Assembly: GCF_047289955.1 (NCBI RefSeq)
Contig: NZ_JBLBUB010000028.1
Coordinates: 1,851 to 65,850 of the forward strand
Source of the DNA: Microbulbifer sp. 2304DJ12-6
GTDB lineage: Bacteria > Pseudomonadota > Gammaproteobacteria > Pseudomonadales > Cellvibrionaceae
Reading direction: 5' to 3'
DNA: 64,000 nt
Position 1 is the stretch's first letter. Each line of letters starts with the position of its first letter. The position numbers and the translations under genes are program-made. The notes under the pieces were generated by a model that saw nothing but the letters and a program-made list of their open reading frames with translations, made no database searches and was not told where the DNA came from. Below, piece by piece: positions 48,605 to 63,256 of this stretch.

Positions 48605-50212
48605 TTAGTGTTTCAGGATCGTTTTGATATCCTCAAACCGTACTCCGTGTTTAGCCAGTAGTTGCTTCACCCGGTGGGAGTCATTACTGGATTTCTTGGT
48701 TTTCCTGCTTACATTGAACAGTGTTCTTCCTGCCTCTGCCATGGAGTTGGAGTTACGACATATCTCTATAAGGCTGGCGAGTTTCAATTGATCGTAGTAA
48801 TCAATCTCTTTGGTGCAGCCAGGCCCCAATACCTGCACAATCAGCGCTCCGGGGTCCAGATCTGAGCTGGGGGCAGATTGCCACTTCCGTCTCAGCCGGT
48901 TTATCTCCTCTTCGGCCACGGCAGCGGTAATGCGGCCACCGTCAGCGAGGGTGCCCATACGGGTGATACTGGCATTGAGGTCGCGGAAGTTGGCTGACCA
49001 AGTAGCATCGGGTGAACGGCTGAAGGTCAGGTATTTTTCACGGGCCACTTTGTTGAAGTTCACCAGGTAGCCAGACTTGCTGGAAAAGGCCTCCAGTTCA
49101 AAATCGATATTGGGTTCTAGATCCTCTATCCGCTCCTTTAGGGAGGGGAGCTGATAGGTCCACAGGTCTATTCGGGCAAGCAGGTCTTCACGAAACAGCC
49201 CCTCGCGGGATTGCTGAGTGAGGTCACGGTTGGTGCCAGCGATCAGCTGAAAGTCGCTGTTGACCTCTTTGTCTGAGCCAAAGGGCATGAAGCGCTTGTC
49301 CTCGATTGCTCTCAGTAGCATCGCTTGCTCGTCCAGTCCTAACTCGCCGACCTCATCCAGAAACAGCAACCCTTTATTGGCCTCCATCAGTAACCCTGGT
49401 CGGTCAGCGGCGGCGCCGGTGAATGCGCCTTTTTTATGGCCAAACAGCGCGGACATGGCATTTTCACCCCGCAGCGTCGCACAGTTTACGGCAACTAGGC
49501 GGCCATCAAGCTTGCCACGTTGTTTCCTGAGCTCATACACCCGCTGGGCAAGCTGGGATTTGCCGGCGCCTGTGGGGCCGGTGATCAGGATGGGCTCATT
49601 AGAGCGGATAGAGACTTGCTCCAGTTGCTCAATCATCTTGTTGAAGGCGGCGTTATTGGTCTCAATGCCTCCTTTCAGGTAGGTCGTGCCTTCCTGGTGT
49701 TCCTTTTGAAAGCGCGAGGCGATCTGGTCGTACTTCGATAAGTCGAGGTCGATGATCTGGTATTGGCCCGGCAGGTTGCTATCGCGCTTGGCGGGAGAGG
49801 TTTGTAGCAGTTGGCCGGGCAGGTAGCCCGCTTCGGTGAGTAGGTATAGGCATATCTGGGCAACGTGGGTGCCCGTGGTGATATGCGTGAGGTACTTCTC
49901 TTTGCTGGGCTTGAAGTCGTAGCCGCGGGCAAAGTCGAGCAGGTCGCTATAGACCGTTTCGAAGTCCCAGGGGTCGTTGAAGTTGACGCGGTGGTGCACG
50001 ACCTCGGTCTCGGGTGAGACGCGCGCGATATCCTCTGTCACCTGCTTGGCAAGGTTATCGGAGTGGTTATCAAAGAGCAGCTCGAGACGATCAATTAGCA
50101 AGTCGTCGTGCTGGCACATTGAAATAGTGGGTCGCCACTTATCCCAGCGCTTTTCGCCTTTGCCGCGCCGGTCCATGGTGGTGCCGAGAATACTGATAGC
50201 TACTGTTTTCAT
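48605..50212 (-). CDS. rtcR: RtcR, sigma54-dependent transcriptional activator of rtcBA with an N-terminal CARF domain
   Basis: Strong collinearity with E. coli RtcR as recalled from memory: KTVAISILGT..WDKWRPT, Walker A GPTGAGKS, GAFTGA, ESELFGH-like region. Divergent from rtcB. Confidence 0.9.
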   Translation of the reverse strand: MKTVAISILGTTMDRRGKGEKRWDKWRPTISMCQHDDLLIDRLELLFDNHSDNLAKQVTEDIARVSPETEVVHHRVNFNDPWDFETVYSDLLDFARGYDFKPSKEKYLTHITTGTHVAQICLYLLTEAGYLPGQLLQTSPAKRDSNLPGQYQIIDLDLSKYDQIASRFQKEHQEGTTYLKGGIETNNAAFNKMIEQLEQVSIRSNEPILITGPTGAGKSQLAQRVYELRKQRGKLDGRLVAVNCATLRGENAMSALFGHKKGAFTGAAADRPGLLMEANKGLLFLDEVGELGLDEQAMLLRAIEDKRFMPFGSDKEVNSDFQLIAGTNRDLTQQSREGLFREDLLARIDLWTYQLPSLKERIEDLEPNIDFELEAFSSKSGYLVNFNKVAREKYLTFSRSPDATWSANFRDLNASITRMGTLADGGRITAAVAEEEINRLRRKWQSAPSSDLDPGALIVQVLGPGCTKEIDYYDQLKLASLIEICRNSNSMAEAGRTLFNVSRKTKKSSNDSHRVKQLLAKHGVRFEDIKTILKH

Positions 50213-50360: not shown

Positions 50361-50376
50361 TGGCACTCTTTTCGCT
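50361..50376 (+). promoter_or_regulatory. Sigma54 (-24/-12) promoter candidate for rtcBA
   Basis: TGGCAC-N5-TCGCT (50361-50376) conserves the GG and GC dinucleotides at the correct spacing. About 50 nt upstream of the likely rtcB start. A perfect 16-bp palindrome CTATCTTTAAAGATAG at 50234-50249 is a candidate activator or IHF site. Confidence 0.5.
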
Positions 50377-50424
50377 GTGCCTATAGTAAGAAAAATGAGA
50401 GCAGAGAATGAAGGGAATAGAACC

Positions 50425-51654
50425 ATGACTCAGCAATCTTACGAAGTAATGCAGGACGGCGGCGTGCCAATCAAATCCTGGACGGTAGGTGTGCCTTTTG
50501 AGGCTGAGGCGAAAGAGCAGCTGAAGAATATTTCACGGATGCCCTTTATTCATCGGTGGGTGGCTGCAATGCCCGATGTACATCTGGGTAAAGGCGCAAC
50601 TATTGGTAGTGTGGTACCGACGCTGGGGGCAGTGATCCCTGCGGCAGTTGGTGTGGATATTGGCTGCGGAATGATGGCGGTGCGAACCAGCCTGAAAGCC
50701 GGCCAGCTGCCGGATAACCTCGCGGGTGTGCGTAATGCTATAGAGCGTGTTGTGCCTCATGGTCGTACCAGTGGTCGACGGGGCAAGGGTCGAGATAAGG
50801 GGGCCTGGGCTAATTTGCCTGATGATGTGATGGCTGCATGGGCGCCACTGTCAGCCCAGTTTGATGTGTTGAAAGAGAAGCACGGTGTGCTGAAGAATAC
50901 GAATAACATCAATCATTTGGGGACACTGGGAACGGGCAACCATTTTATCGAGATGTGTTTGGATGAGCACGAAAACGTGTGGTTGATGCTGCATAGTGGA
51001 TCCCGTGGTGTGGGAAACCGAATCGGTACGCATTTTATTGAAATGGCGAAGAAGGATATGGAGCGTTGGCATATTCGTCTGCCTGATTCGGATCTGGCCT
51101 ATCTGCCAGAAGGCTCGAATCACTTTGATGAGTATGTTGAAGCGGTCGAATGGGCTCAGAACTTTGCGCGTATTAATCGTGAGGTGATGATGGCTCGGGT
51201 TATCAAGGCAGTGAAGGATTCACTGGGGATGGACTTTGAAGCACGTATGGAAGCGGTCAATTGCCACCATAACTATATCTCCCGCGAACATCACTACGGG
51301 GAAAATGTGCTGGTAACTCGAAAAGGTGCCGTTCGTGCCCGCGCTGGAGAGATGGGTATTATCCCGGGAAGCATGGGCGCACGTTCATTCATTGTACGAG
51401 GCTTGGGTAACGAAGAGAGCTTTTGTAGCTGTAGCCATGGTGCGGGGCGAGTGATGTCACGCACCAAGGCGAAAAAGTTGGTCTCGCTGGAAACGCATCG
51501 TCAGGCAACTGCAGGGGTAGAGTGCAGAAAGGATGCAGGTGTGATTGATGAAACGCCTTCAGCCTATAAGTCAATTGAAAAGGTGATGGAGGCTCAAAAG
51601 GATCTTGTTGAAGTTGTATACACCCTAAAGCAAGTGGTGTGTGTGAAAGGGTAA
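50425..51654 (+). CDS. rtcB: RtcB RNA 3'-phosphate/2',3'-cyclic phosphate ligase
   Basis: Near-collinear with E. coli RtcB as recalled from memory: MPFIHRWVAAMPDVHLGKG, GTLGTGNHFIE, NCHHNY, SCSHGAGR. The ORF track opens at 50377, but alignment favours ATG 50425 (MTQQSYEV...). Confidence 0.9.
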   Translation: MTQQSYEVMQDGGVPIKSWTVGVPFEAEAKEQLKNISRMPFIHRWVAAMPDVHLGKGATIGSVVPTLGAVIPAAVGVDIGCGMMAVRTSLKAGQLPDNLAGVRNAIERVVPHGRTSGRRGKGRDKGAWANLPDDVMAAWAPLSAQFDVLKEKHGVLKNTNNINHLGTLGTGNHFIEMCLDEHENVWLMLHSGSRGVGNRIGTHFIEMAKKDMERWHIRLPDSDLAYLPEGSNHFDEYVEAVEWAQNFARINREVMMARVIKAVKDSLGMDFEARMEAVNCHHNYISREHHYGENVLVTRKGAVRARAGEMGIIPGSMGARSFIVRGLGNEESFCSCSHGAGRVMSRTKAKKLVSLETHRQATAGVECRKDAGVIDETPSAYKSIEKVMEAQKDLVEVVYTLKQVVCVKG

Positions 51655-51942: not shown

Positions 51943-52986
51943 TTGAAGGAAGATAAAGTGATTGTAATTGATGGTTCACAAGGGGAAGGTGGCGGACAAA
52001 TTTTCAGAACAACACTGACCCTGGCGATGTGTTTAGGTAAGCCGGTTCGGATTAAAAATATCCGCGCGGGAAGAAATCGCCCTGGACTATTGCGACAGCA
52101 TCTTGCCTGCTTGCGCGCAGCAAAAGAAATTAGCGGTGCAGCAGTGACAGGTGATGAGCTTGGCTCTTCGGTTGTGACTTTCGAGCCCGGTAAGGTTAAG
52201 CCAGGGGAATACCGGTTTGCGATTGGCTCTGCCGGGAGCACCACCTTGGTGTTTCAGACAGTTCTGATGCCGTTGCTGTTGGCGGGCGGTATGAGTGAGT
52301 TGTATCTGGAAGGTGGGACACATAATGGTATGGCGCCGAGCTTCGATTTCATTGAGCAATGTTTTTTGCCGGTGTTGTCAGGAATTGGATGCCGCGTAGA
52401 GGTTGATCTCGAACGATATGGGTTTTATCCAGCTGGCGGAGGCGCTTGGTGTGTGAGGATTCATCCTGCGAATAAAATTCAGCCCCTGACCCTAGTGGAG
52501 CGTGGCGAAGTGATCAGTATGGAGGCGGTAGCGCTGTCGGCTCGTATCCCTTCGCATGTTACTGAACGGGAGTTAAGCCAAGTAAAGAAAAAGTGCTATT
52601 GGCCTGAGTCTTCGTTGAATCAAAGGCTCGTCAGCTCAGCGGGGCCGGGGAATATGGTCTCTCTTCGAGTGAATGTTGGAGAGGTTACTGAGGTATTTGA
52701 GTCTGTGGGGGAGCGTAACGTCAGCGCAGAGCGGGTGGCGGGTCGTGCGATCAGAGAGTTGAAGCGCTATCTGGAGGCAGGTGTTCCAGTGGGGGAGCAT
52801 TTGGCCGATCAGCTAGTGTTGCCGATGGCACTGGGAGGTGGTGGGTGCGTTCAAACACTGAAGCCTAGTCAGCACCTTCTGACCAATATTGAGGTTATCA
52901 AGGCTATTGCTGATGTGAAAATAGTTCTCACTGAGAATGGTGATGATGACTGGGATGTTATAGTCAGTCAGAAAATTGAGGGTTAA
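51943..52986 (+). CDS. rtcA: RtcA RNA 3'-terminal phosphate cyclase
   Basis: TTG start. Conserved IDGSQGEGGGQIFRT..LAMCLGKPVRI..NIRAGR and C-terminal blocks. Confidence 0.9.
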   Translation: MKEDKVIVIDGSQGEGGGQIFRTTLTLAMCLGKPVRIKNIRAGRNRPGLLRQHLACLRAAKEISGAAVTGDELGSSVVTFEPGKVKPGEYRFAIGSAGSTTLVFQTVLMPLLLAGGMSELYLEGGTHNGMAPSFDFIEQCFLPVLSGIGCRVEVDLERYGFYPAGGGAWCVRIHPANKIQPLTLVERGEVISMEAVALSARIPSHVTERELSQVKKKCYWPESSLNQRLVSSAGPGNMVSLRVNVGEVTEVFESVGERNVSAERVAGRAIRELKRYLEAGVPVGEHLADQLVLPMALGGGGCVQTLKPSQHLLTNIEVIKAIADVKIVLTENGDDDWDVIVSQKIEG

Positions 52987-53064: not shown

Positions 53065-53092
53065 TTGACATTTTTTTTGTGAAGCCTAACAT
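53065..53092 (+). promoter_or_regulatory. Sigma70-like promoter candidate (TTGACA-N16-TAACAT)
   Basis: Exact -35 hexamer TTGACA, 16-nt spacer, -10 TAACAT, in an AT-rich tract downstream of rtcA. Confidence 0.4.
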
Positions 53093-53198
53093 TGCGATCC
53101 AACAAATGATTGGTTTTTAAATTTCTGGAATTAAAGATAATAATTTTTGGAACTGTAAATTAATCAACAGAGCTGCTTTAAAAACAGTTGAGAGCGCA

Positions 53199-53312
53199 AT
53201 GAAACAGGCCACTACAAAAGTACAGCAACAACCGATGACGCACCATAGCGTGTGTTCGGAACGTTGTGCGTTTCCCATGCATGGGCAGGGATTGGGCAAC
53301 AATACATAGTCG
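53199..53312 (+). CDS. Small Cys/His-containing 37-aa ORF (MKQATTKVQQQPMTHHSVCSERCAFPMHGQGLGNNT), hypothetical
   Basis: Lies between the promoter candidate and a strong terminator. Weak SD (GAGAG). Coding status is uncertain and it could be part of an sRNA. Confidence 0.25.
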
Positions 53313-53382
53313 CGTCTTTCTTTGTGGAAGGCGTAACGGCCTTCTGAGAATTTAAGAGTTAATAGTAAACTCTTTTAAACCC

Positions 53383-53427
53383 GGTAGGCCATCTCACCAG
53401 TAGAGATAAACTACCGGGTTTTTTTAT
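53383..53427 (+). terminator. Rho-independent terminator
   Basis: 8-bp stem CCCGGTAG / CTACCGGG, then TTTTTTT. Confidence 0.55.
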
Positions 53428-53858
53428 GCCTGAGAAAAGGTGTTTAAGGTATGAGGTTTTAGATTGGTGCGAACGAGCAGCTGTATTCTGGTGAGTAACT
53501 ATATGCAAATAAATAGGCATGTAACAAAACAACAATGCCCGAATTTGTTTTTACAAAATCGTGGACAGGGGGAGCGTGCATTTAATGTAAATACACTTTC
53601 AGTTCTTGATCAGGCAGAGCATCGTTGTAATCAACAAATACAAGTCATGGATAAATTAAGTATGTAGTCCTTCGGAAATCCCGGAAGGCTGCGGCCAGTC
53701 GGGATAATTAGAAAAGAAATTTTCGAAAACCCCGTCTAGCAATCCTGGTCGGGGTTTTTGTTTGCAGGAAGCAAAGTAAGCCGCGACTGTATGGATACCC
53801 AAAACACTTCGCGGGGCAGGCTCTGCAGAAGAGAAGCAGTTTTTAATAGATAAATTTT

Positions 53859-53933
53859 TGGTCTGTAGCTGAGTGGTAAAGCGTCCGGCTGTTAACCGGA
53901 AGATCGTAGGTTCAATCCCTACCAGACCAGCCA
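53859..53933 (+). tRNA. tRNA-Asn (anticodon GUU)
   Basis: Acceptor TGGTCTG/CAGACCA. D-arm GCTGAGTGGTAAAGC. Anticodon arm TCCGG-CTGTTAA-CCGGA. T-arm GTAGG-TTCAATC-CCTAC. Discriminator G and encoded CCA. Confidence 0.85.
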
Positions 53934-53955
53934 GTTCCTTGATGGGAAGAGTAAT

Positions 53956-54029
53956 GGTGATGTTAGCTCAGTGGTAGAGCGCCTGGCTGTGGACCAGGAG
54001 ATCAGGGTTCGATTCCCGGCATCACCCCA
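53956..54029 (+). tRNA. tRNA-His (anticodon GUG) with G-1
   Basis: Extra 5' G pairing with discriminator C. Acceptor GTGATGT/GCATCAC. D-arm GCTCAGTGGTAGAGC. Anticodon arm CCTGG-CTGTGGA-CCAGG. TTCGATT T-loop. CCA encoded. Confidence 0.8.
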
Positions 54030-54065
54030 ATAATTTGAAAGCAGTAGAAAGAGGTAAAGAAGTTT

Positions 54066-54141
54066 AGCAGGTGTAGCTCAATAGGTAGAGCAGGTGCCTT
54101 CCAAACACCGGGTTGAGGGTTCGAGATCCTTGGCCCTCTCC
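54066..54141 (+). tRNA. tRNA-like gene with an aberrant acceptor stem (possible pseudo or chimeric tRNA; anticodon loop reads CUUCCAA/UUCCAAA, Gly-UCC or Trp-CCA)
   Basis: Good D-arm (TA-GCTC-AATAGGTA-GAGC) and T-loop (TTCGAGA), with 3' CCA. The 5' strand GCAGGTG is not complementary to the 3' strand GGCCCTC. The anticodon stem has a C:A mismatch. Confidence 0.4.
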
Positions 54142-54267
54142 AGGATCAATGAATGCATGTGGGATAGCTTCATCCAGTCCGAGGGCTCCAGAAAAAATTC
54201 CGCGAAAGTGCGAGGAGTGGAAAATAACAAGGTGTGGATGACGCCTGATAAAAAAGAGAGAAAGGAA

Positions 54268-54831
54268 ATGACAAGTCTAGTTCGAATTCTTAGATTGAAT
54301 AAAGCTGGACTGCCTCAGGCATGGGTAAGTCGCGAAGAGGCGGCAACTTTATATGTTAAAGATCAGGTGTTGTGGAGCTTGGGAAGTGAGTCATTTCGTT
54401 TGAATGGTGGCTATAACCAAATCGGTGAGCGTTCCCATTTAAAGCTAGCTCCAATTATCGCTTGCACGGGCAAAACAGGGAAAAAGAGTTTTACTCCGGC
54501 ACTAAGCAACCGAATGTTGTTTAGGCGTGATGGACATCGATGTATGTACTGTGGGTTTGAGTTTGACGACCGTAGTCTGACACGAGACCACATTATTCCT
54601 AGAGTTCAGGGTGGCCCTGATAGCTGGAAAAATGTTGTGGCCGCTTGCGTCAGGTGCAATGGGCATAAAGGGGGGCGTACTCCTGAACAAGCAGGTATGG
54701 AATTAATGGCCATTCCGTTTGTGCCAAATGTATTTGAATTTATGTACTTGGCTAATCGCCTGATTCGAGGTGATCAGATGGAGTACTTACAGTCCCGGTT
54801 TACCGGGCAAAGATGTTGGGAAGCGGCGTAG
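54268..54831 (+). CDS. HNH endonuclease, about 187 aa
   Basis: ATG 54268 with an AGGA SD. C-terminal HNH motif RRDGHRCMYCGFEFDDRSLTRDHIIPRVQGG...NVVAACVRCNGHKGG. The ORF track's longer version (from 54094) runs into the tRNA-like gene and is unlikely. Confidence 0.8.
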   Translation: MTSLVRILRLNKAGLPQAWVSREEAATLYVKDQVLWSLGSESFRLNGGYNQIGERSHLKLAPIIACTGKTGKKSFTPALSNRMLFRRDGHRCMYCGFEFDDRSLTRDHIIPRVQGGPDSWKNVVAACVRCNGHKGGRTPEQAGMELMAIPFVPNVFEFMYLANRLIRGDQMEYLQSRFTGQRCWEAA

Positions 54832-54951
54832 CCGTCCTCTCACAAAAGAGTTTGGGAAGTTTTATCAAGTTAGCGGAGCCGGTTCTGACAGCCTGCACGG
54901 CACAAGCATCTCTGATGTGTTGTGTACCAAGTTGATAAAAGCCTAAACACC

Positions 54952-55025
54952 TACTTTGTAGCTCAGTTGGGTAGAGCAGTCGACTAATAATCGATCGGGC
55001 GCAGGTTCAATTCCTGCCAAAGTAT
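54952..55025 (+). tRNA. tRNA with an unusual anticodon AAU (would read Ile AUU); well-formed cloverleaf, CCA not encoded
   Basis: Acceptor TACTTTG/CAAAGTA (7/7). U8. D-arm GCTC-AGTTGGGTA-GAGC. Anticodon arm GTCGA-CTAATAA-TCGAT (U33, A37). Variable loop CGGGC. T-arm GCAGG-TTCAATT-CCTGC. Discriminator T. Confidence 0.7.
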
Positions 55026-55059
55026 CCGTCGTCTAAAAAACGACTCATTGGTAAAGGCG

Positions 55060-55106
55060 AGAGCCAGGGGTTCAAATCCCCACAGGACTATCATCCCTGA
55101 TTGAAA
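55060..55106 (+). other. Orphan tRNA 3'-half-like fragment (T-arm GGGG-TTCAAAT-CCCC plus ACAGGAC-T), with no 5' partner
   Basis: GCCAGGGGTTCAAATCCCCACAGGACTA lies immediately after the AAU tRNA. The complementary 5' acceptor strand is absent, suggesting an att-site-like remnant of an integration or recombination event. Confidence 0.4.
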
Positions 55107-55419
55107 TCTACTAGAGGTCCATGACTCTGGGTTATTAATCGATGGCAAGTGGTTGCAAAACCGATTGCCCGGATCTTTGACATAGGGCGCCGGTATTGTT
55201 GCCGTTGGTGGTGGGTTTGTTGAGTGCGATGTCACTACATGTTTTCAAGATGTTATTACATGAGCCAAGTAAGTTCTCAGGAAGAGAGCCTCATAGAATA
55301 ACCAAGAAAACCTCTGTATTGACATCCCGTTTAGCACAAGCAATCAACCGCAGCTTTGCTGGGTGGACCTCGCTCTTTATATAAGGGTATTGAGAAAAGG
55401 AAATCTGAACGCGGTAAGA

Positions 55420-56595
55420 ATGATGAAATCACTATTTAAAATGTGGAACACCTTGGATATTGCGGATAACGAGCGAGCATTGTTATTCCGCCGGAATCGA
55501 TTTGAGTTGGTTCTAAAGCCGGGTCGTCACCGGGTACAGGTGATGACTGGTGGTGTGCGAATTGAAACATACGATGTGACCGATGTGGTCTTCACGGCGG
55601 CCAAGGCAAAATTTTTGCTAAATACTCACTCAAGTATACTGAGAGAGTATCTGGAGTCCTATGAACTGACTGATTATCAAGTAGGTTTGTTCTACCGGGA
55701 TGGCCACTTGGTCGATATTATCCCACCTGGGTCATTCCGTGCTGTATGGAAAGATGTTGAGGATGTTCGGCTGGATATTATCGATATCAGTGAGGCGTAT
55801 GCTATCGATGAAAAGCTACTCGGCTTGCTCGGTCGTGGGGCAAAGGTCGGTCAGTGTAAAACAGCTGTGCAAGCCATTAGCTACACTGAGGTGCCCGATG
55901 AGCATGTGGGTTTGCTGTTGGTTAACGGCAAGTTCGAGAAGTTACTGCAGCCTGGCAGCTATGGTTACTGGAAATATAATCGTTCCGTCACTGTTAAACT
56001 GTTAGATCTTCGCCTGCAAGCCATTGAGGTGAGTGGCCAGGAGATCCTGACTAAGGATCGGGTCAGTTTACGTGTTAACCTGACCGGCAGTTATAGAGTG
56101 ACAGATCCTCAGGTTGTTGCGTTGAAACTGAACGACTACAGCGGGTTTATCTACCGAGAATTACAGCTGCGACTGCGTGAGGCGGTTGGAACTCAAGCCC
56201 TGGATAGCCTGCTTGAAGATAAAGACAGTCTCAATCTTGTGATTGCCGATGGTATTCGTGAAAGACTGGCAGAATATGGCATTGAGATGATCAGTGTTGG
56301 CGTAAAGGATATTATCCTGCCTGGTGATATGAAGGTGATCTTGAATCAAGTGGTTGAGGCTCAAAAAGAGTCAGAGGCTAACCTGATTAAACGCCGTGAG
56401 GAAACTCAAGCGATGCGATCACTGCATAACACCGCCAAGATGATGGATAACAATCCAACGCTACTGCGCTTGAAAGAGCTGGAGGCGCTGGAACGCATCA
56501 CAGGGCGTATCGATAAGATCTCTGTTTACGGCGGTCTTGATGGTGTGCTGAATGACTTGGTCAAGCTGGCACCCAGGGCTAAGTCTGACGGATAA
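55420..56595 (+). CDS. SPFH/band-7 domain protein (stomatin/prohibitin-like); the ORF track's alternative start is GTG 55363
   Basis: SPFH signature across ILTKDRVSLRVNLTGSYRVTDPQVV...VGVKDIILPGDMKVILNQVVEAQKESEANLIKRREETQAM, plus a C-terminal coiled-coil. A TATATAAG -10-like box at about 55389 favours ATG 55420. Confidence 0.75.
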   Translation: MMKSLFKMWNTLDIADNERALLFRRNRFELVLKPGRHRVQVMTGGVRIETYDVTDVVFTAAKAKFLLNTHSSILREYLESYELTDYQVGLFYRDGHLVDIIPPGSFRAVWKDVEDVRLDIIDISEAYAIDEKLLGLLGRGAKVGQCKTAVQAISYTEVPDEHVGLLLVNGKFEKLLQPGSYGYWKYNRSVTVKLLDLRLQAIEVSGQEILTKDRVSLRVNLTGSYRVTDPQVVALKLNDYSGFIYRELQLRLREAVGTQALDSLLEDKDSLNLVIADGIRERLAEYGIEMISVGVKDIILPGDMKVILNQVVEAQKESEANLIKRREETQAMRSLHNTAKMMDNNPTLLRLKELEALERITGRIDKISVYGGLDGVLNDLVKLAPRAKSDG

Positions 56596-56694
56596 GTCAC
56601 CGGTTAATACCGGTGGTTGCTCCCTATACATGGATAAAGCAAGATGCGAGTCGAAATGATATTTTGTGCTGGCCGTTCATGTCAAAAATAAAGA

Positions 56695-56922
56695 GTGAAA
56701 ATGAAACAAGATAATTTATTGCAGACAATTTATAACAATCATGAATCCCTTTATGAGCAGGTGAAAGTTCATCTTGAGCAGGGTGCTGACTTTAATCGGG
56801 TTACATCCTATGGTGAGTCTGCACTAAGAGTGGCGTCGAATAATGGTCGTGTTGATGTTATTAAGCTTCTTCTTGAACATGGTGCTGATGAAGGTCAGCT
56901 GGAAGAAGGCGTTTGGGTTTAG
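56695..56922 (+). CDS. Small ankyrin-repeat protein, 75 aa; may continue by frameshift into the 56913-57107 ORF
   Basis: GESALRVASNNGRVDVIKLLLEHGAD is a canonical ankyrin repeat. An overlapping downstream ORF in the +1 frame suggests a frameshift or two short genes. Confidence 0.55.
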   Translation: MKMKQDNLLQTIYNNHESLYEQVKVHLEQGADFNRVTSYGESALRVASNNGRVDVIKLLLEHGADEGQLEEGVWV

Positions 56923-57163
56923 AGAATAGAGGGTATCCTCAGGCTGAGTTGTTGCTGGCGTGCGGTGTTGCGGCGAAGGGTGCAAATATCAGGCCGTTAC
57001 TGGATGATGGTTATGAAGGGTTAAAACTGGCGGAGCAGATCCGCCGCCTGCGAATCACATCCATTGCCCGGTTTATGGCGCAGTGGCATGAACTCCCCGG
57101 TCAATAATTTTTAGCAGTAATACCAAGGGGGGAATCCCTTGTTTATACAAGGTTAGTAGGACA

Positions 57164-58090
57164 ATGAGCAGTAAAACACAGTATCTCATTAAGCAGGGGT
57201 TGCTTACATCGCCCCCCAAGTTCCTTGAGACGGGGGTGCAGTATGAGGTCGTCATGGGGTCCATCGCCTATGGGGTTGCCGAAGATCATTCGGATATGGA
57301 TGTCTATGGATTCGCCATTCCCCCAAGAGATTGGGTGTTTCCGCATCTTAGAGGCGAGATACCTGGCTTTGATGAAGCGGGCCCTCAGTTTGAGCAGATC
57401 CAGCAGCATCATATGATCGATAAGTCTGGGATGGGCGGTAAGGGGCGCGAGTACGACCTCACCCTATATTCGATAGTGAAGTACTTTCGTTTACTAATGG
57501 AAAACAACCCAAATATTATCGACTCTCTGTTTGTGCCCCGAAACTGTGTCCTATATAGCACAGCTGTTGGTGAGCTGGTGCGGGAGCGCAGACAGCTATT
57601 CCTGCATAAGGGGTGCTGGGCACGATTTAAAGGCTATGCCTATGCTCAGGTGCATAAGATGCGTACCAAAGTTCCTGAGGGTGGCCGGAAAGAGATCATC
57701 GAAAAGTTTGGTTACGATGTGAAATTTGCCTACCACGTGGTACGCCTTCTCAATGAGGTAGAACAAATTCTGGTTGAAGAAGATCTAGATCTCGCTAGAA
57801 ACAAGGAACAGCTGAAAGCGATACGTCGTGGAGAATGGTCTCAGCAGGCAGTGGAAGACTACTTCTCAGATAAAGAAAATCAGCTGGAGAAACTGTATCT
57901 GGAAAGTAAGCTCCCAGCAGTGCCTGAGTCGGCTTCTATTAAAGAACTATTAATGCAGTGTCTTGAGCAGCATTATGGCTCACTTGAGCAGTGTGTTGTT
58001 CGAGAGGATGAAGCATTGATTGCATTGCGAGAAATTGAATCGATCACTGTTCGCGTGAGAACAGGCAAGATGAGTATTGAGAGAAAGTAA
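57164..58090 (+). CDS. Pol-beta-superfamily nucleotidyltransferase, 308 aa, unknown specificity
   Basis: N-terminal minimal NTase motif GSIAYGVAEDHSDMDVYGF (GS-x9-DhD), then an approximately 230-aa helical domain. Sits 520 nt upstream of rtcB2-prfH. Confidence 0.6.
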   Translation: MSSKTQYLIKQGLLTSPPKFLETGVQYEVVMGSIAYGVAEDHSDMDVYGFAIPPRDWVFPHLRGEIPGFDEAGPQFEQIQQHHMIDKSGMGGKGREYDLTLYSIVKYFRLLMENNPNIIDSLFVPRNCVLYSTAVGELVRERRQLFLHKGCWARFKGYAYAQVHKMRTKVPEGGRKEIIEKFGYDVKFAYHVVRLLNEVEQILVEEDLDLARNKEQLKAIRRGEWSQQAVEDYFSDKENQLEKLYLESKLPAVPESASIKELLMQCLEQHYGSLEQCVVREDEALIALREIESITVRVRTGKMSIERK

Positions 58091-58614
58091 ATATTTCTGC
58101 AAATTCAAAATAAGTGCTTGCGACCATGCTTAGAACCGACTATAGTTCGCACAACTCTTATCCCGGTACGTTTTCTAGTTAAGACGTACACTCTAAACAG
58201 GAGGCTTAATATGATTAACACAAAAATTATTTACACAATGTTGGGCTTCGCTGCCAAGACTTATTTTAGCTAAGTCTATTTATTTCCCTCTACGGGAGAA
58301 GTTCTACAACATTAGCTTGTTTTAAGATCGGTTCTAAATCGATAGTGACTGCCTCGAAGTTTAAATAGCTTTGAGGCTATGCTTTCGTGTGTCTAATCGG
58401 TCTAGGCTTTGATGTTCCCAATATTTTTCTTTGGCTTTTCTGCGCCTGCACTAGATCACTTTTTAATGGTGTTTGTCTCTGCAAGTCGCGTCTGCTAGTT
58501 GTAAGAAATGCCAGAGATCTCTCTACGTTATTAATACGTTTGAAAATAACAATTTTCGAGCGAGAGACGGTTTTGCCTAAAAAAAGTATAACTTTCTGGA
58601 TCACGGTTAGAACA

Positions 58615-59862
58615 ATGGATACTTTTTCAAAAAAGTTAGCTGATAAATCTTATTATAGGAAAGCCGATGTTGTAAAAACTTTGCAGACATCGTCACAGGC
58701 TGCAGTTAGGCTGGTGATTTCTGACAAAAATTGGTTGGAGACTTTAGCGGTAGACCAGCTGAAGAAAACGACCGAGTTGCCGGGCATGTGTTGTGGAGTA
58801 GGAATGCCGGACTTGCACCCAGGCAAAGGTCAGCCAATAGGTGCTGCGTTTATCACGCGCGATCAGGTTTACCCGCATCTGGTGGGTAGCGACATTGGTT
58901 GTGGCATGGGCTTTTGGAAACTGAATGTTACAAGGCGACAGGTAAAGCTGGATAAATGGGAGAAGCGACTCGTTGATTTGGATGACCCTTGGCAGGGTGG
59001 AGACACCGACCAGTGGTTGAGTGATTCAGGCGTTAAAACTAATGATGACTCTTTGAAAGAGGCGAATCTCAAACTGGGCACTATTGGTGGGGGGAACCAC
59101 TTTGCGGAAATTCAGCAAGTGAATGAGATTTTCGCACATGAAGTGTTATCCGGATTGGGCTTGGATAAACAATCGGTTGTGTTTCTAGCTCACTCAGGTT
59201 CCCGCGGCCTTGGTCAGAAAATACTTCGCAACCATGTTGATGTCTTCGGTGCTCAAAGCTTAACGAATGATCCTATGGCCCGGTACCTTGAGCGGCATGA
59301 TTATGCGGTTCAGTGGGCGGTGGCCAATCGCGGCCTCATTGCGAAGCGGTTTTGTGAACGTTTAGGTGTGAATCGAGATGCTTTGCTGGATGTTTCGCAC
59401 AATACAGTGACTGCAATGGATCAGCAATCTATTGATGCATTGGGGTTGGAGTACACAAGTGAAAGTCGTTATTGGATTCATCGTAAAGGCGCCAGCCCCA
59501 CTGATCAGGGGTTAGTCATGATTCCGGGTTCGAGAGGGAGCTTGAGCTATCTGGTGAAACCCAGAGCCTCTGAGGCATATAACTTGGCGGCGGGTGGCTT
59601 TTCTCTTGCTCATGGTGCGGGGCGTAAGTGGAAGCGAAGTGAATCCCGAGGACGACTTGAAAAACGCTATAAGGTCAAAGATTTGGAAGTGACGGATCTG
59701 GGGAGTCGCGTGGTCTGTAAACAAAGAGACCTGCTCTATGAGGAGGCGCCTCAAGCCTACAAGAACATCAGCACAGTTGTGGATGATCTGGTGCAGGCGG
59801 GCATGGTCGATGTGGTTGCGAGCTTCAAGCCGCTGATCACCTACAAAACACGGAAAAAGTGA
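58615..59862 (+). CDS. rtcB2: RtcB2, paralogous RtcB-family RNA ligase of the PrfH-associated type
   Basis: RtcB motifs GMPDLHPGKGQPIGAAF, GSDIGCGMG, GTIGGGNHFAEIQ, SHNTVT, AHGAGRKW. Only distantly related to the canonical RtcB at 50425. ATG 58615 by alignment; the ORF track opens at 58387. Immediately followed (1-nt gap) by prfH. Confidence 0.85.
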   Translation: MDTFSKKLADKSYYRKADVVKTLQTSSQAAVRLVISDKNWLETLAVDQLKKTTELPGMCCGVGMPDLHPGKGQPIGAAFITRDQVYPHLVGSDIGCGMGFWKLNVTRRQVKLDKWEKRLVDLDDPWQGGDTDQWLSDSGVKTNDDSLKEANLKLGTIGGGNHFAEIQQVNEIFAHEVLSGLGLDKQSVVFLAHSGSRGLGQKILRNHVDVFGAQSLTNDPMARYLERHDYAVQWAVANRGLIAKRFCERLGVNRDALLDVSHNTVTAMDQQSIDALGLEYTSESRYWIHRKGASPTDQGLVMIPGSRGSLSYLVKPRASEAYNLAAGGFSLAHGAGRKWKRSESRGRLEKRYKVKDLEVTDLGSRVVCKQRDLLYEEAPQAYKNISTVVDDLVQAGMVDVVASFKPLITYKTRKK

Positions 59863-59863
59863 A

Positions 59864-60568
59864 GTGCTTAATTTGGATAAGAGGATGGAAAGTAAAAAAA
59901 ATGCGGTCGTCTGGCTTCAACTCAGTGCGGGCCAAGGTCCAAAGGAGTGTGGCTGGGTAGTTGCTCAATTGATAAAGCGGCTATTACACAATGCGCAAAA
60001 GCATTCGATCTCGGCTGAACTGGTAGAGAGCTTGGCTTTTGAAAAGGCAATGCGAAAGCAAAATCTTATCGAGATCGATGCATATCTATCCGGCTTAATT
60101 CGTTTGGAAGGTGCTGGAGTTGAGGCCTATGCAGAGTCTTGGGTTGGACCGATCAAGTGGCAAGGTGAAAGCCCCTATCGGCCGAAACATAAGCGCTGCA
60201 ACTGGTTTGCCGGGATTGAGATTGTCTCTGTAAACGGTGCACAAGAAGTTGATATCCGGCAGTTGGCGCGTGAAGTCGATGTGGAGGCTATGCGTTCAGG
60301 TGGCCCGGGCGGACAGCATGTAAACAAGACCAGCAGCGCGGTACGTATTACGCACAGGCCTTCTGGCGTGCAGATTCGGGTTGAGTCTGATCGGTCCCAG
60401 CATCGAAATCGTCAGCTGGCGATGGAGCGTCTACAGATGATTTTGGCTGCAGGTATCGAGGCTGAAGGTCGTGCTCAGGTGCGTGATCGATGGTTAAAAC
60501 ATTATCAGGTTAAGCGAGGCAGTCCTGTGCGAGTGTTTCAGGGGGCGGATTTTAGAGAAAAGCGATAG
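59864..60568 (+). CDS. prfH: PrfH (RF-H), peptide chain release factor homologue with a GGQ motif
   Basis: VVWLQLSAGQGPKEC aligns with the E. coli PrfH N-terminus (LLQLSSAQGPEEC, recalled from memory). GGQ motif RSGGPGGQHVNKTSSAVRITH. No codon-recognition domain of a full RF. Starts at GTG 59864 or ATG 59885. Confidence 0.85.
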   Translation: MLNLDKRMESKKNAVVWLQLSAGQGPKECGWVVAQLIKRLLHNAQKHSISAELVESLAFEKAMRKQNLIEIDAYLSGLIRLEGAGVEAYAESWVGPIKWQGESPYRPKHKRCNWFAGIEIVSVNGAQEVDIRQLAREVDVEAMRSGGPGGQHVNKTSSAVRITHRPSGVQIRVESDRSQHRNRQLAMERLQMILAAGIEAEGRAQVRDRWLKHYQVKRGSPVRVFQGADFREKR

Positions 60569-60647
60569 CGATTATTTATGGCTAAGTACTTACGGCAGAG
60601 GCCAGGTATTTGAACTCTTGAGAATAGTAACAGTGAGGAGAGTAAAA

Positions 60648-60845
60648 ATGAGTTATTTCAAAGTGCCTTTGGGTTTTGGAAATAGAAAGCGTAAAGGGAA
60701 CAAGTCGGGTGGCAGACACCGCCCGGCTCAATCATTGCTCACGGCGTTGATGGCCGGAGTGATTGGCTATGCAAAGTACAAGTTTTGGATTGCAGCAAAT
60801 GAAACGCGAACAAGTAAAAGAGGTTTTAGCGTGCTTAGACGATGA
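60648..60845 (+). CDS. Small basic protein with one predicted TM helix, 65 aa; overlaps the next gene
   Basis: Strong SD GAGGAG 8 nt upstream of ATG 60648. Sequence MSYFKVPLGFGNRKRKGNKSGGRHRPAQSLLTALMAGVIGYAKYKFWIAAN... Overlaps the downstream ORF start by about 47 nt. Confidence 0.4.
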   Translation: MSYFKVPLGFGNRKRKGNKSGGRHRPAQSLLTALMAGVIGYAKYKFWIAANETRTSKRGFSVLRR

Positions 60846-61755
60846 GCGTCGAGTTTTTCGGTATTTTCGAGACCGTTATTGTTTCGATTTGATGGAATTT
60901 GAAATGGATCGCCAGGGTTACGAAAGCATTAAAGTGGCTGAGCTGAAGGCGGGCTCACTGGGTCGGTACCTGCAGAAACCGGTGGTGGCGCAGGCACTTA
61001 AGCACTGTGCTAATGGCTTGGTGTCAAAACAGGATTTACAGACCCTATGGTCAAAAGATCTGTTGCCGTTCTATGTCAGTTTAAGCAGTTGGGGCGAGGC
61101 TGATCGTGGCTGGGATCAGACTTCTAGAAATCAGTGCAACCTGGTATTGCAGTTGAATTTTGATGGAAAGCATGATGAGCAATACCGAAAGCTGGTAAAG
61201 CCCGATGACGATTACGGGCCCTTTGAGTACTGGGGGCACCCTGTACAGAAAGGTAACCGTAAAACAATGTCATGGATACGGATGGATATTGATTTCGACA
61301 CTAATGAAGTATTGATTGAGGAGATACAGAGTGATTGGTTACGCAATGCCTCAAGCGCATTGGCATGTGTAAAGTCGCGTAGAGCCAAAAAGCCCTCTCT
61401 CAAACCGAGAGATGTGTATGGAGATATTCTCGGTGATTTCGAAGATCTGGAGAGTTACGTAGAGCAGACGCTGGCGCCCTACAGAAAGATATGGGCTGAA
61501 GCATCGATGTTAGCAGCCCTGCGATTAATTCGTGATGAACTTGGACTCTCAACGGTTTACTACCACAGCTTTGATACTGGCAAGAAGCTAAAGGATGTCT
61601 GTGGGGCCCCTCCTCGGTCAATGTACACCCAATTACCTAAGCAGTTTGGGTTTGAAGAGACGGGTGATGCACCGGATTTTTTAGTAAGCGATAAATTTGC
61701 GCGACGATGTATTAAGGCAATTCATAACCCGCGCTGGTTTCGTCGTTTTGTTTAG
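60799..61755 (+). CDS. Hypothetical protein, about 318 aa, no recognisable motifs; last gene of the rtcB2-prfH block
   Basis: Long ORF (the track gives 60763). Codon usage is similar to its neighbours. No motif recognised by eye. Confidence 0.55.
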   Translation: MKREQVKEVLACLDDERRVFRYFRDRYCFDLMEFEMDRQGYESIKVAELKAGSLGRYLQKPVVAQALKHCANGLVSKQDLQTLWSKDLLPFYVSLSSWGEADRGWDQTSRNQCNLVLQLNFDGKHDEQYRKLVKPDDDYGPFEYWGHPVQKGNRKTMSWIRMDIDFDTNEVLIEEIQSDWLRNASSALACVKSRRAKKPSLKPRDVYGDILGDFEDLESYVEQTLAPYRKIWAEASMLAALRLIRDELGLSTVYYHSFDTGKKLKDVCGAPPRSMYTQLPKQFGFEETGDAPDFLVSDKFARRCIKAIHNPRWFRRFV

Positions 61756-61882
61756 TAGTGGTGTGCGATTTAAATAGCTTGCCAAGGAAAACATTAGGCT
61801 TTGAAATACTGGAAGGTTTAATGGATAATTACTTGGCGGCACAAGCCGCATAAATGGTATGCACCCCAAGGTTGAATCCGTG

Positions 61883-62452
61883 ATGTATTATTGTTTGAGT
61901 TCAAGCTTCAATAGTCATCCCCAAGCTAGGCTTGTAGAAACGAATGATGAACAAGCACATGAAGTCGTCCGGGGAAGGAAAAGGGTCTATGATGGAGAGT
62001 TCAATGCTGACAGTTTCCTGGAAGATATTTCTATGGAGCAACTCTTAAAGTTGGATTTATTAGAAACGCATTCAGGACTATTGGTATTGTCTCGGAGAAT
62101 GGTTGATCACATAAATAATTTAAACTTACAAAAAATGGAATTCTATGACTGTGCATTGAATGCTCGCTCAAAAAAGATAATGGGCGAATTTCTTACAATA
62201 AAGAACAATTATGCATTAAATGTAATCGACAAAGATATAACGCCAAATCATTTTTGGCCGTACCTTAAGAAATTTAAATACGACAACTATGTTATTACAA
62301 CTAGGCAAGATTTTTTATTTGGTTGGGATATCGCTGAACCGACAATGCTTATATGTAGTGAACAGTTTTGTGCGATGGTGCCAGAGTCCATGTTTTTAAT
62401 TGACTATGAGGAGCTTCCTTGTTGCTTCGATAAAACTAAGCGAAGAAGATAG
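61883..62452 (+). CDS. Hypothetical AT-rich ORF, possible orphan immunity protein
   Basis: GC about 38%. Located upstream of an orphan Rhs core fragment. No motifs recognised. Confidence 0.4.
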   Translation: MYYCLSSSFNSHPQARLVETNDEQAHEVVRGRKRVYDGEFNADSFLEDISMEQLLKLDLLETHSGLLVLSRRMVDHINNLNLQKMEFYDCALNARSKKIMGEFLTIKNNYALNVIDKDITPNHFWPYLKKFKYDNYVITTRQDFLFGWDIAEPTMLICSEQFCAMVPESMFLIDYEELPCCFDKTKRRR

Positions 62453-62513
62453 AGGGTTCGCAGTCTGTCAGTATTTTCCACCGATAACCGGGGGCGTTGT
62501 TAAGTAAAGAAAG

Positions 62514-62843
62514 ATGAGTAAGTATGGAATACCTGATCCGATCAAAGAGTACACAGATGAGCATGAATTTTGGGAAAAAAGCATTGGCGATGCCGAGGTA
62601 ACAATCGAAGAAATCGAGTATCAAGGCGAGGGAAAGATCTCCTTCCAACTATCAATTTCTAATGGTCAAAACGGATTTAAGTTAGAGGAGAGCATATTGG
62701 AATATTTAGATCGTCACAATCCAAATATAAATCAATTTCTCTTATCTGATTCTGAGAGTTCAGCTTGCGTAATCTGGACATGTAATCGGGAGGCATTTGA
62801 GGAATTACTTGATGTTGCACTTGAATATCTTGAAAAATTATGA
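62514..62843 (+). CDS. Hypothetical small acidic protein, 109 aa, possible orphan immunity protein
   Basis: AT-rich. Located between the putative immunity ORF and the Rhs core fragment. Confidence 0.4.
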   Translation: MSKYGIPDPIKEYTDEHEFWEKSIGDAEVTIEEIEYQGEGKISFQLSISNGQNGFKLEESILEYLDRHNPNINQFLLSDSESSACVIWTCNREAFEELLDVALEYLEKL

Positions 62844-62944
62844 TGCTATGCACCCGTCTCGTCGACGGTAATTTTGTTTTAATAACCCAATGAGAATGAA
62901 CCAAATATACTGATGTTAAATGGCATTTTGAACCGGGCTCCTTC

Positions 62945-63256
62945 GTGCCAGTAGCCCGCCAGCAAAGTGATCAGGAGCCGTTTCAAGGGTACGATGGGAA
63001 GGGCCGTCCTGTCTATAGCACCACTGTGTTTGGCAGTTTAGTTCACGGTTCACTAGCACCCAAAGCCTCTGCCGATCCAGATCCTTACTTCTGTCTGATA
63101 AGGTTCCAGGGCCAATGGGCAGATGAGGAAACCGGGCTTTATTACAACCGCTTCCGCTACTATGACCCTCAGGCCACACAGTATATGTCGCCTGATCCGA
63201 TAGAGGTTCAGGAAGGAGGAGTAATGGGTATGTGGACGATTCAACCACTGTATTAG
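62945..63256 (+). pseudogene. Orphan Rhs core fragment (C-terminal YD repeat plus core), truncated
   Basis: Encodes GLYYNRFRYYDPQATQYMSPDPIEVQEGG, which matches the Rhs core consensus (..YYNRNRYYDP..GRFISQDPIGL..). No upstream Rhs shell, and the sequence after the core is short. Confidence 0.6.

Follow-up and report, generated by a model that had tools for sequence, protein, structure and literature searches.

The window analysed here is a 64,000-nucleotide (nt) stretch of DNA from the marine Microbulbifer sp. 2304DJ12-6 which contains a block of genes for the repair of RNA and of the translation apparatus. From left to right, this block consists of the canonical genes rtcR, rtcB and rtcA, three tRNA genes, an HNH endonuclease gene, a band-7-associated tRNA-like gene (b7a-tRNA), a gene for a Band-7/SPFH protein, a truncated ankyrin-repeat open reading frame (ORF), the stub of a gene for a CCA-adding enzyme (Cca), a nucleotidyltransferase gene of the RlaP family, a short leader ORF, a second RtcB gene (rtcB2), the release-factor homologue gene prfH, a small bridging ORF and the gene of an uncharacterised protein of 318 residues, which is termed U318 here. 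A first-pass annotation made from the letters of this DNA had described the right part of the block as an expanded RtcB2-PrfH island. All ORFs named there were recovered on the + strand, with positions that agreed exactly or to within a few codons, and its general idea of a set of RNA-repair or translation-damage genes is borne out by the gene identities. We consider it likely that the block is a composite island directed at damage to the translation apparatus, in which at least two modules that also occur independently lie side by side. This reading is built on the gene identities, synteny, co-occurrence counts, the conservation of the small ORFs and of the tRNA-like RNA, and the predicted fold of U318.

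The locus counts come from two neighbourhood scans. An alignment of SPFH homologues was used as the query against one genome per GTDB species, where 80 loci with 45-94% identity were kept. The SPFH-centred loci were mapped with tblastn and ARAGORN, and 81 non-redundant loci enter the counts. A scan of metagenomes for U318 supplied 80 further loci, and the 37 copies with enough flanking sequence are referred to as informative loci. Relatives are designated by locus numbers, of which L009, from a Cellvibrionaceae metagenome-assembled genome (MAG), is the closest relative of the window. The cut-offs used were those of NCBIfam for TIGR03073 (271.8 bits), NF007153 (407 bits) and TIGR03072 (166.65 bits) and that of Pfam for PF10127 (23 bits), while hydrophobicity was judged from the 19-residue Kyte-Doolittle maximum.

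The rtcB2 gene (58615..59862, + strand) codes for a PrfH-linked RNA ligase which scores above the cut-off with both TIGR03073 ('release_rtcB', 433.8 bits) and NF007153 (498.6 bits) and is 26% identical to the canonical RtcB1 of the same window. The prfH gene (59864..60568, + strand) codes for a release-factor homologue without the C-terminal tail (TIGR03072, 208 bits against 166.65) with its GGQ motif at residues 149-151. Its match to prfB spans model positions 115-314 only, so that domain 1 is absent. The stop codon of rtcB2 (59860-59862) is separated from the start of prfH by 1 nt, an identical gap was observed in L009, and this spacing suggests translational coupling. The earlier description of a divergent RtcB2 followed after 1 nt by a GGQ-bearing PrfH is therefore confirmed. 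An alternative start of rtcB2 is possible at the TTG at 58573, 14 codons 5' of the ATG. The element TTGCCTAAA(A/G) and the purine-rich stretch which precedes it (58573-58614) were found to be conserved in eight related loci.

In Escherichia coli, RtcB2 and PrfH rescue ribosomes cut at A1493/G1494 of the 16S rRNA and religate the rRNA (PMC9304027, PMC9223846). The window resembles the E. coli rtcB2-prfH operon (PMC1586002; PMC9304027; PMC9223846) in that a PrfH-linked RtcB gene is directly followed by a gene for a domain-1-less GGQ release-factor homologue. However, the E. coli operon is described as consisting of two genes whereas the window adds a conserved leader ORF on the 5' side and the bridging small ORF and U318 gene on the 3' side. 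Megablast and blastn searches of 5,426 complete E. coli genomes with the island and with rtcB2-prfH returned no DNA match. Two-gene rtcB2-prfH operons without the island neighbours were observed in another Microbulbifer and in Ralstonia.

The Band-7/SPFH ('slipin') protein (55423..56595, + strand, with an alternative start at 55363; Pfam Band_7 PF01145, E 9e-29) has more than 5,700 homologues. It had been suggested to act as a membrane scaffold or sensor, and the membrane role is unsupported as no transmembrane-grade hydrophobic stretch is present (19-residue Kyte-Doolittle maximum 1.26). A tRNA-like gene on the same strand was found 5' of the SPFH gene in 79 of the 81 loci at a median distance of 369 nt. 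The window copy (54952..55027, + strand; Rfam tRNA 68 bits), called tRNA-Ile(AAT) by ARAGORN, lies 396 nt from the SPFH gene. The acceptor stem, D arm and T arm of these genes are almost invariant across loci while the anticodon loops drift freely (CAT, AAT, AAA, ATT, AGT and TAT), some being given a 2- or 4-nt 'anticodon' by ARAGORN. Because the anticodon loop varies in a manner that no decoding tRNA would tolerate, we identify the 'tRNA-Ile(AAT)' as a b7a-tRNA.

The b7a-tRNA is followed by a structured 3' extension of ~120 nt (55028..55150, + strand), which is predicted to form three hairpins, one of them T-arm-like (GGGGTTCAAATCCCC), followed by a conserved AGAGGYCCATGG box. RNAalifold predicted 16 pairs over 14 loci, 7 of them with compensatory double changes. 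A search against Rfam at E up to 1 returned four tRNAs only, and neither this extension nor the leader region upstream of rtcB2 was matched. The extension was observed at the same position in L007-L042. Loci of Cellvibrio, Colwellia and Paraglaciecola have two or three complete tandem tRNA-like genes in its place.

The genes found next to SPFH are mainly those of the canonical operon. RtcB1 orthologues (at least 64% identity) occur within 10 kb of SPFH in 60/81 loci, rtcR is divergent from rtcB in 57/81 (54-92% identity) and rtcA orthologues were detected by tblastn in 41/81, the L007 orthologue having a Pfam RTC match. RtcB2-PrfH occurs within 10 kb of SPFH in only 11 loci, on the same strand downstream in 4 of those, and is missing from the other 70. 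RlaP is present in 8/81 loci and is accompanied by PrfH in three of the eight. On these counts (79/81 for the tRNA-like gene, 60/81 for RtcB1 and 11/81 for RtcB2-PrfH), SPFH and the b7a-tRNA belong to the rtcBA operon rather than to rtcB2-prfH, and form an extension of rtcR-rtcBA. The co-occurrence check is essentially negative for the idea that SPFH and the nucleotidyltransferase are accessories of RtcB2-PrfH. In the window, a Band_7 protein, a tRNA-like gene directly upstream of it and an RtcB gene nearby are all present. The distance from the end of rtcR-rtcB-rtcA to SPFH is 2.4 kb, as had been noted before, and rtcBA and SPFH are separated by tRNA genes and the HNH gene only.

SPFH/Band-7 modules and a novel tRNA-like molecule were reportedly named by Burroughs and Aravind in 2016 as possible scaffolding cofactors. 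As quoted in bioRxiv 10.1101/312249, their work predicted a Band-7/b7a-tRNA/RlaP/RtcB repair system, and both the SPFH protein and the nucleotidyltransferase are thereby already placed in the literature. In addition, a 2026 paper describes a Pseudomonas aeruginosa SPFH gene (PaFlo8, Band-7) embedded in the rtc locus. Like the predicted system, the window has a Band_7 protein preceded by a tRNA-like gene, beside rtcB and with RlaP nearby; unlike it, a tRNA-array remnant and an HNH gene lie between rtcA and the b7a-tRNA. The conserved structured 3' extension is a further feature of the tRNA-like gene in the window, compared here with the 2016 system as it appears in quotations.

The canonical operon consists of rtcR (48605..50212, - strand), an ORF for a sigma-54 activator, and the ORFs of rtcB (RtcB1, 50422..51654, + strand) and of the RNA 3'-phosphate cyclase gene rtcA (51943..52986, + strand). 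A sigma-54 promoter-like site, TGGCACTCTTTTCGCT, lies 5' of rtcB (50361..50376, + strand) and has one mismatch to TGGCAC-N5-TTGCW. This is the best-placed sigma-54 match in the island, and a consensus scan of the window found no site of comparable quality before SPFH or rtcB2. Matches at the same stringency are not enriched in the window (51 observed against 44 expected). The ~870 nt between rtcA and the first tRNA gene (52987-53858) contain no + strand ORF of at least 60 amino acids (aa) and are nevertheless 84% identical to L009. A short inverted match was noted there at 53377-53423, and Rfam gave a sub-threshold Pseudomon-1 match only.

Three tRNA genes (Asn-GTT, His-GTG and Gly-TCC; 53859..54141, + strand) were found by ARAGORN, with Rfam tRNA scores of 74, 55 and 33 bits, and are followed by the HNH endonuclease gene (54268..54831, + strand; Pfam HNH_5, E 2e-16). 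Relatives have 4 to 27 tRNA genes and an HNH gene at the same position, and those with a long same-strand array carry 11 to 27 tRNAs, so that the window copy falls short of such an array. The window retains just three array tRNAs and is therefore read as the remnant of a supernumerary tRNA array. At least three extra tRNAs were observed in 15/81 loci, 13 of which also have the HNH gene, and HNH homologues were found in 24/81 SPFH-centred loci. The tRNA cluster and HNH gene, previously regarded as a mere flank with the b7a-tRNA counted among the flanking tRNAs, are conserved parts of the system.

A related association is known from cyanobacteria, in which long tRNA arrays occur with an HNH endonuclease gene and with rtcB nearby (Santamaria-Gomez 2021). 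In Anabaena the array itself has no adjacent rtcB, and translational stress induces it together with the HNH gene and rtcB (Santamaria-Gomez 2021). A slipin and GNAT acetyltransferases are also members of the TrcR regulon of Anabaena. The window likewise joins supernumerary tRNA genes, an HNH gene and an RtcB gene, the latter two being linked to the array remnant. Unlike in Anabaena, where the genes are dispersed, they are physically clustered in the window, and their regulation would be by RtcR/sigma-54 and not by TrcR. The window also differs from full L-arrays as it keeps three array tRNAs where relatives have up to 27.

Arrays of 12 to 27 tRNAs which cover most amino acids were observed between an RtcB gene and HNH/b7a-tRNA/SPFH in several marine gammaproteobacteria (L008 5049-9623; L034, L021, L022, L056 and L066; in metagenomes L123, L126, L128 and L139). 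These arrays widen the cyanobacterial link between tRNA arrays, HNH and rtcB to marine gammaproteobacteria. A third RtcB clade, ~55% identical to canonical RtcB and 28% to RtcB2 (L006 5752-6948; L016 15675; L103-L164), is found together with tRNA arrays, HNH and U318, in most cases in the absence of rtcR and rtcA. Directly 5' of HNH in L006 (7364-7660) lies an ORF of ~98 aa with a weak match to Pfam cREC_REC, 'cyclic-phosphate processing receiver domain' (E 7e-4). Homologues of this ORF were found in L008, L018, L019, L021, L022, L034, L035 and L039, and the window has no copy.

Between SPFH and RlaP the window bears the marks of a deletion. A small ankyrin-repeat ORF of 73 aa (56701..56922, + strand; Pfam Ank_4, 35.6 bits) abuts the last 64 codons of a Cca gene (56913..57107, + strand), which gave a weak match to the C-terminus of NF008137 (E 3e-4). 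In blastn comparisons, L009 aligns with window positions 54172-56561 and 56900-61754, the latter corresponding to L009 13961-18920, and the 338 nt that separate these stretches in the window correspond to 2.8 kb in L009. The 2.8-kb segment was observed, with Pfam searches of its HEAT-repeat and Cca ORFs, to code for a HEAT-repeat protein of 559 aa and a full Cca of 414 aa. As L009 has a whole Cca gene where the window keeps the last 64 codons, the Cca gene of the window has been deleted. A HEAT-repeat protein of ~560 aa follows SPFH in L009 (11207-12886), L057, L058, L068 and L074, in the slot of the truncated ankyrin ORF of the window.

The ankyrin ORF has only two homologues among 5.8 billion proteins, both of 117-118 aa, one of which sits directly 3' of rtcA. 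The window copy diverges from them after about residue 66 and is therefore C-terminally truncated, and tblastn found no counterpart in the 80 SPFH-centred loci. It had been listed as an accessory component; from its sequence it appears neither full-length nor conserved, as would be expected of a functional part, and is best described as a truncated remnant. The small ankyrin protein may be a rare occupant of the 'helical-repeat' slot, of which the window copy is broken.

The RlaP gene (57164..58090, + strand) matches Pfam PF10127 with 66.4 bits against a cut-off of 23, and the GS-x11-DxD catalytic motif (GSIAYGVAEDHSDMD) is intact. By its profile match this nucleotidyltransferase is assigned to RlaP, an RNA-ligase-associated family. 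No sequence match to the window RlaP was found in the PDB. The Cca-RlaP pair also follows SPFH in L009, L016, L021, L028, L036 and L092. A 2025 preprint reports that two Pseudomonas RlaPs, from P. fluorescens and P. aeruginosa, add 1-2 nucleotides to damaged RNA 3' ends and that their genes lie between rtcB and rtcA.

RlaP and rtcB2 are separated by a spacer of 524 nt with a GC content of 0.38. In this spacer lies the leader ORF MINTKIIYTMLGFAAKTYFS (58211..58273, + strand), which has 20 codons and a strong Shine-Dalgarno (SD) sequence of the AGGAGG type (caggaggcttaat) and ends 341 nt before rtcB2. The peptide and the SD were found to be conserved in 12 related loci, where the peptide motif T[LM]LGF[AT]A...FS-stop is retained along with the SD. 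As examples, MINTETIYTMLGFAAKTYFS (L009), MFYTNTTFTMLGFTAETYFS (L089) and MFVTIKSFTLLGLTTKTLFS (L102) each have an AGGAGG-type SD. We counted leader ORFs in 20 non-redundant rtcB2-prfH loci as ATG ORFs of 13-34 codons with a strong SD at most 450 nt upstream. Exactly one such ORF was present in 18/20 loci, none was seen on the reverse complement (0/20) and the mean of shuffled sequences was 0.3. The leader-bearing loci include Kangiellaceae, Paraglaciecola, Psychrobium and a Ralstonia megaplasmid, and span gamma- and betaproteobacterial lineages.

The leader region folds better than shuffled sequences (z -3.3). In minimum-free-energy folds, the leader SD and start codon are predicted to pair with leader codons 10-15 in a hairpin (58198..58253, + strand). 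A terminator-like hairpin of 11 bp lies between the leader ORF and rtcB2 (58351..58377, + strand); it was found by a consensus scan and is also present in the minimum-free-energy fold. No conserved antiterminator emerged for this region. We place a module boundary between RlaP and rtcB2 because the leader ORF, the terminator-like hairpin and the spacer with a GC content of 0.38 are located there and a sigma-54-like site is present only before rtcB1.

A similar arrangement is known from P. aeruginosa, where the leader peptide PA5471.1 is encoded upstream of armZ (PA5471, RtcB-like), which adjoins prfH/PA5470. When ribosomes stall on PA5471.1, owing to antibiotics or to tRNAs without CCA, the mRNA reportedly refolds and armZ is induced. 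Like PA5471.1-armZ-PA5470, the window has a very short ORF with its own SD a few hundred nt 5' of an RtcB-like gene followed by prfH, with a terminator-like structure in between. According to a 2025 review, control of this anti-repressor by a leader peptide is apparently unique to MexXY, whereas here a leader ORF precedes 18/20 rtcB2-prfH loci in several lineages. By this analogy, the counts suggest that control by a leader peptide is widespread in rtcB2-prfH operons beyond Pseudomonas MexXY. We found no description of the regulation of rtcB2-prfH outside Pseudomonas in the literature. The conserved leader ORF would link ribosome or tRNA damage to the induction of the repair cassette.

On the 3' side of prfH, a small bridging ORF of 65 aa (60648..60845, + strand) lies between prfH and the U318 gene and overlaps the start of the latter by 47 nt. 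Its N-terminus, M[SN]YF.VPLG, is conserved, its middle varies in sequence and length and its end lies inside the U318 gene. It was observed at 13 PrfH-U318 junctions and at no other U318 locus with usable upstream sequence, 80 having been scanned in all. The position of this ORF points to a possible translational coupling to U318. Two tiny ORFs had been singled out in the first-pass annotation and both are real conserved features; however, the one given as 19 aa (the leader ORF) has 20 codons and the bridging ORF is not a conserved membrane protein, as it lacks a hydrophobic stretch of membrane grade (19-residue Kyte-Doolittle maximum 1.15).

The U318 gene (60799..61755, + strand) belongs to a family for which 269 homologues are word-indexed and which forms 856 clusters at 50% identity; all members have ~310-330 aa and more than 30 residues are invariant. 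The window protein is 100% identical to a hypothetical protein of Microbulbifer sp. 2304DJ12-6. No Pfam, NCBIfam, PADLOC or PDB sequence match was found for U318, and eight distant members had no match in the profile libraries either. The earlier statement that the protein has no recognisable motif therefore holds at the profile level, and it is the predicted fold that is GNAT-like. The AlphaFold2 model has a predicted local distance difference test (pLDDT) score of 91.8 and shows a divergent GNAT-like core. Compared with structures of the GNAT superfamily, its nearest fold, U318 has 7-16% sequence identity and is enlarged by an N-terminal domain of ~90 residues and by an extension at the C-terminus. 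A Foldseek search of U318 against the PDB gave no significant match, no GNAT profile hidden Markov model matched U318 or the eight distant members, and inspection of the alignment after the corresponding strand revealed no acetyl-CoA pyrophosphate-binding motif Q/R-x-x-G-x-G/A. A PD-(D/E)xK nuclease, considered on account of a D...EExQ pattern, was rejected as the predicted fold is GNAT-like.

U318 adjoins an RtcB-family gene in 23/37 informative loci: it follows RtcB2-PrfH in 12 and abuts the third RtcB clade in 11, with gaps down to 7 nt and often of 7-8 nt. No full-length RtcB lies within 2.5 kb in the remaining 14, several of which have SPFH, PrfH or an RtcB fragment nearby, and about eight copies are truly alone. 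Kangiellaceae, Ralstonia and a Microbulbifer plasmid also have rtcB2-prfH loci without U318. Since two RtcB clades adjoin it, U318 is RtcB-associated and not PrfH-specific, and the tie of the 318-aa protein to RtcB2-PrfH stands for the 12 loci in which it follows PrfH, the protein being paired with the other clade in 11 more. U318 represents a sizeable, constant-length and unnamed family beside RNA ligases of two RtcB clades, and knowledge of its reaction could reveal a further step of bacterial RNA repair. In L009 the U318 gene (17842-18921) is divided between two ORFs (116 and 236 aa) and is either a pseudogene or an assembly error of the MAG.

Taken together, these features are arranged as two modules, for which we infer all activities and regulatory steps. 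Module A would be an RtcR/sigma-54-controlled rtcB-rtcA operon extended downstream by the decayed tRNA array and HNH gene, then by the b7a-tRNA with its 3' extension and SPFH, then by a helical-repeat protein and Cca gene, which in the window appear reduced to the truncated ankyrin ORF and the 64-codon stub, and finally by RlaP. As judged from their families, RtcA and RtcB would reseal tRNAs cut by ribotoxins while RlaP, and formerly also Cca, would restore lost 3' nucleotides. SPFH and the tRNA-like RNA could serve as a scaffold or cofactor and the spare tRNAs could refill the pool. Module B would consist of the 20-codon leader ORF, the terminator-like hairpin, rtcB2, prfH, the bridging ORF and the U318 gene. 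As in the homologous E. coli pair, PrfH would free the peptide from ribosomes whose 16S rRNA is cut at the decoding centre and RtcB2 would then religate the rRNA. If the positional analogy to PA5471.1-armZ-PA5470 applies, ribosomes stalling on the leader would relieve termination and switch the cassette on. U318 may be associated with the ligase as a cofactor or as a modifying enzyme. Should the composite reading be right, a place is already known for most of the seemingly unplaceable ORFs, and the block is hardly to be presented as a new system. What is new lies in the GNAT-like family linked to RtcB and in how general the leader ORF is; the remaining modules have already been described. The island is a compact natural case in which tRNA repair, spare tRNAs and ribosome rescue are found together.

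Several points weigh against this division into two modules with a leader-controlled second one. The one-strand order (SPFH)-Cca-RlaP-...-RtcB2-PrfH-U318 is repeated in no fewer than four other loci (L009, L028, L036 and L092), and the 11/81 loci in which RtcB2-PrfH lies within 10 kb of the rtc/SPFH locus are far above chance; the two modules may therefore be functionally integrated to some degree in this clade. The locus frequencies come from SPFH-centred and U318-centred scans, which are a biased sample of rtcB2-prfH operons. The operon boundaries rest on sigma-54 and terminator-like motifs whose counts do not exceed those of shuffled controls. In the RNAalifold consensus, the 15 pairs of the SD hairpin show one-sided changes only and no compensatory pair, and conservation of the leader nucleotides may be due to the peptide, to the RNA or to both. 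The likeness between the leader and PA5471.1 is positional and not sequence-based. Furthermore, the role of SPFH and the b7a-tRNA is, in the text quoted in bioRxiv 10.1101/312249, itself a prediction.

The same synteny lends some weight to the view that the whole block is a single expanded RtcB2-PrfH anti-ribotoxin system, with SPFH, the ankyrin protein, the nucleotidyltransferase and the 318-aa protein as dedicated accessory subunits acting on cleaved ribosomes. In addition to the shared strand, the Cca-RlaP-RtcB2-PrfH-U318 order common to the four loci named above and the 12 informative loci with U318 after PrfH, an accretion of accessory genes, among them those for a scaffold-repeat protein and a Pol-beta nucleotidyltransferase, around RFH-RtcB (RFH, release-factor homologue) is described in main-text passages of Burroughs and Aravind 2019 (PMC6514570), which list a TPR protein, a Pol-beta nucleotidyltransferase, a ZnR protein and a charged helical protein. 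The window resembles that set, as far as those passages describe it, in having a helical-repeat protein (HEAT in L009, an ankyrin remnant in the window) and a Pol-beta nucleotidyltransferase near the RFH-RtcB pair. However, the same passages state that the RFH-associated nucleotidyltransferase is not specifically related to RlaP, whereas that of the window scores as RlaP, and they do not name SPFH or the GNAT-like protein. We regard a single system as unlikely since SPFH and the tRNA-like gene go with rtcR-rtcBA in about 60/81 loci and have no RtcB2-PrfH in 70/81, RlaP is found with PrfH in only 3/8, and the ankyrin ORF is truncated and without counterpart in 80 SPFH-centred loci. The leader ORF, the terminator-like hairpin and the AT-rich 524-nt spacer also part RlaP from rtcB2, and the two-gene operons of another Microbulbifer and Ralstonia do without such neighbours.

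A larger anti-phage system, to which the first-pass annotation had extended its proposal, is very improbable in the form of a defence island where the tRNAs, HNH, nucleotidyltransferase and SPFH serve abortive infection or counter-defence and RtcB2-PrfH reverses self-inflicted RNA damage. Phages do use tRNA arrays and RNA ligases against anticodon nucleases, immunity-like and Rhs-like debris lies on the right, and HNH weakly matches PtuB-type PADLOC models (E 5e-8, HNH motif only), a match which reflects a generic nuclease motif in the absence of the partner ATPase. Apart from such generic matches of HNH and the ankyrin ORF, no PADLOC-DB 2.0 model matches the core genes (SPFH, RlaP, RtcB2, PrfH, the small ORF or U318), the region showed no phage genes, and the neighbourhood is chromosomal and syntenic across genera with a housekeeping-type rtcR-rtcBA operon. 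Equally hard to credit is the view that RtcB2-PrfH alone is functional in the right half, with the gene of the 318-aa protein and both small ORFs as passengers or annotation artefacts. In its favour, none of the profile libraries recognises a motif in U318, several homologues are solitary, lacking any repair gene over 8-10 kb, and the L009 copy is split. Against it, the family has 856 constant-length clusters with more than 30 invariant residues and a confident fold, and adjoins an RtcB-family gene in 23/37 informative loci with gaps often of 7-8 nt. A leader ORF was found in 18/20 rtcB2-prfH loci against 0.3 expected, and the bridging ORF is confined to 13 PrfH-U318 junctions. All three readings fit less well than the composite island.

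Within the composite island, a joint proposal can be put forward tentatively, and we hold it to be possible, if doubtful as a whole: that leader-peptide sensing of stalled ribosomes is an ancestral and general switch of rtcB2-prfH and no peculiarity of Pseudomonas MexXY, and that U318 is an unrecognised GNAT-fold partner of RtcB-family ligases, among them RtcB2 and the third-clade RtcB tied to tRNA arrays. Under this proposal, the ribosome or tRNA damage that the cassette repairs would itself be the signal for its expression. In the course of repair, U318 would act on the damaged RNA, on aminoacyl- or peptidyl-tRNA or on a ribosomal component, either by modifying it or by passing it on, and the bridging ORF would couple U318 synthesis to the translation of prfH.

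The two repair modules were also observed to cluster repeatedly in other arrangements. As an example, loci of Kangiellaceae, Paraglaciecola, Colwellia and Psychrobium carry rtcB2-prfH at a distance of 4-9 kb on the downstream side of rtcR-rtcBA-SPFH, encoded by the other strand and lacking U318. The opposite-strand loci are L052, L053, L058, L061, L078, L081 and L083.

The block had also been described as AT-richer than its flanks, which is correct for the left side (GC 0.469 against 0.508) and incorrect for the right (0.399). The homology with L009 stops at 61754, and the right flank (61859-63256) is AT-rich with a GC content of 0.40. It contains an ORF of 197 aa with a weak sub-threshold match to Imm11, an ORF of 109 aa without a match and an ORF of 103 aa in which an Rhs-like ...RYYDP...DP motif was recognised by eye and which Pfam does not match. 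To the left of the block, at positions 671-48420 of the window, there are very large ORFs, of 2130, 3013 and 2110 aa, along with three or more genes for RND-type pumps (~1020-1040 aa each).

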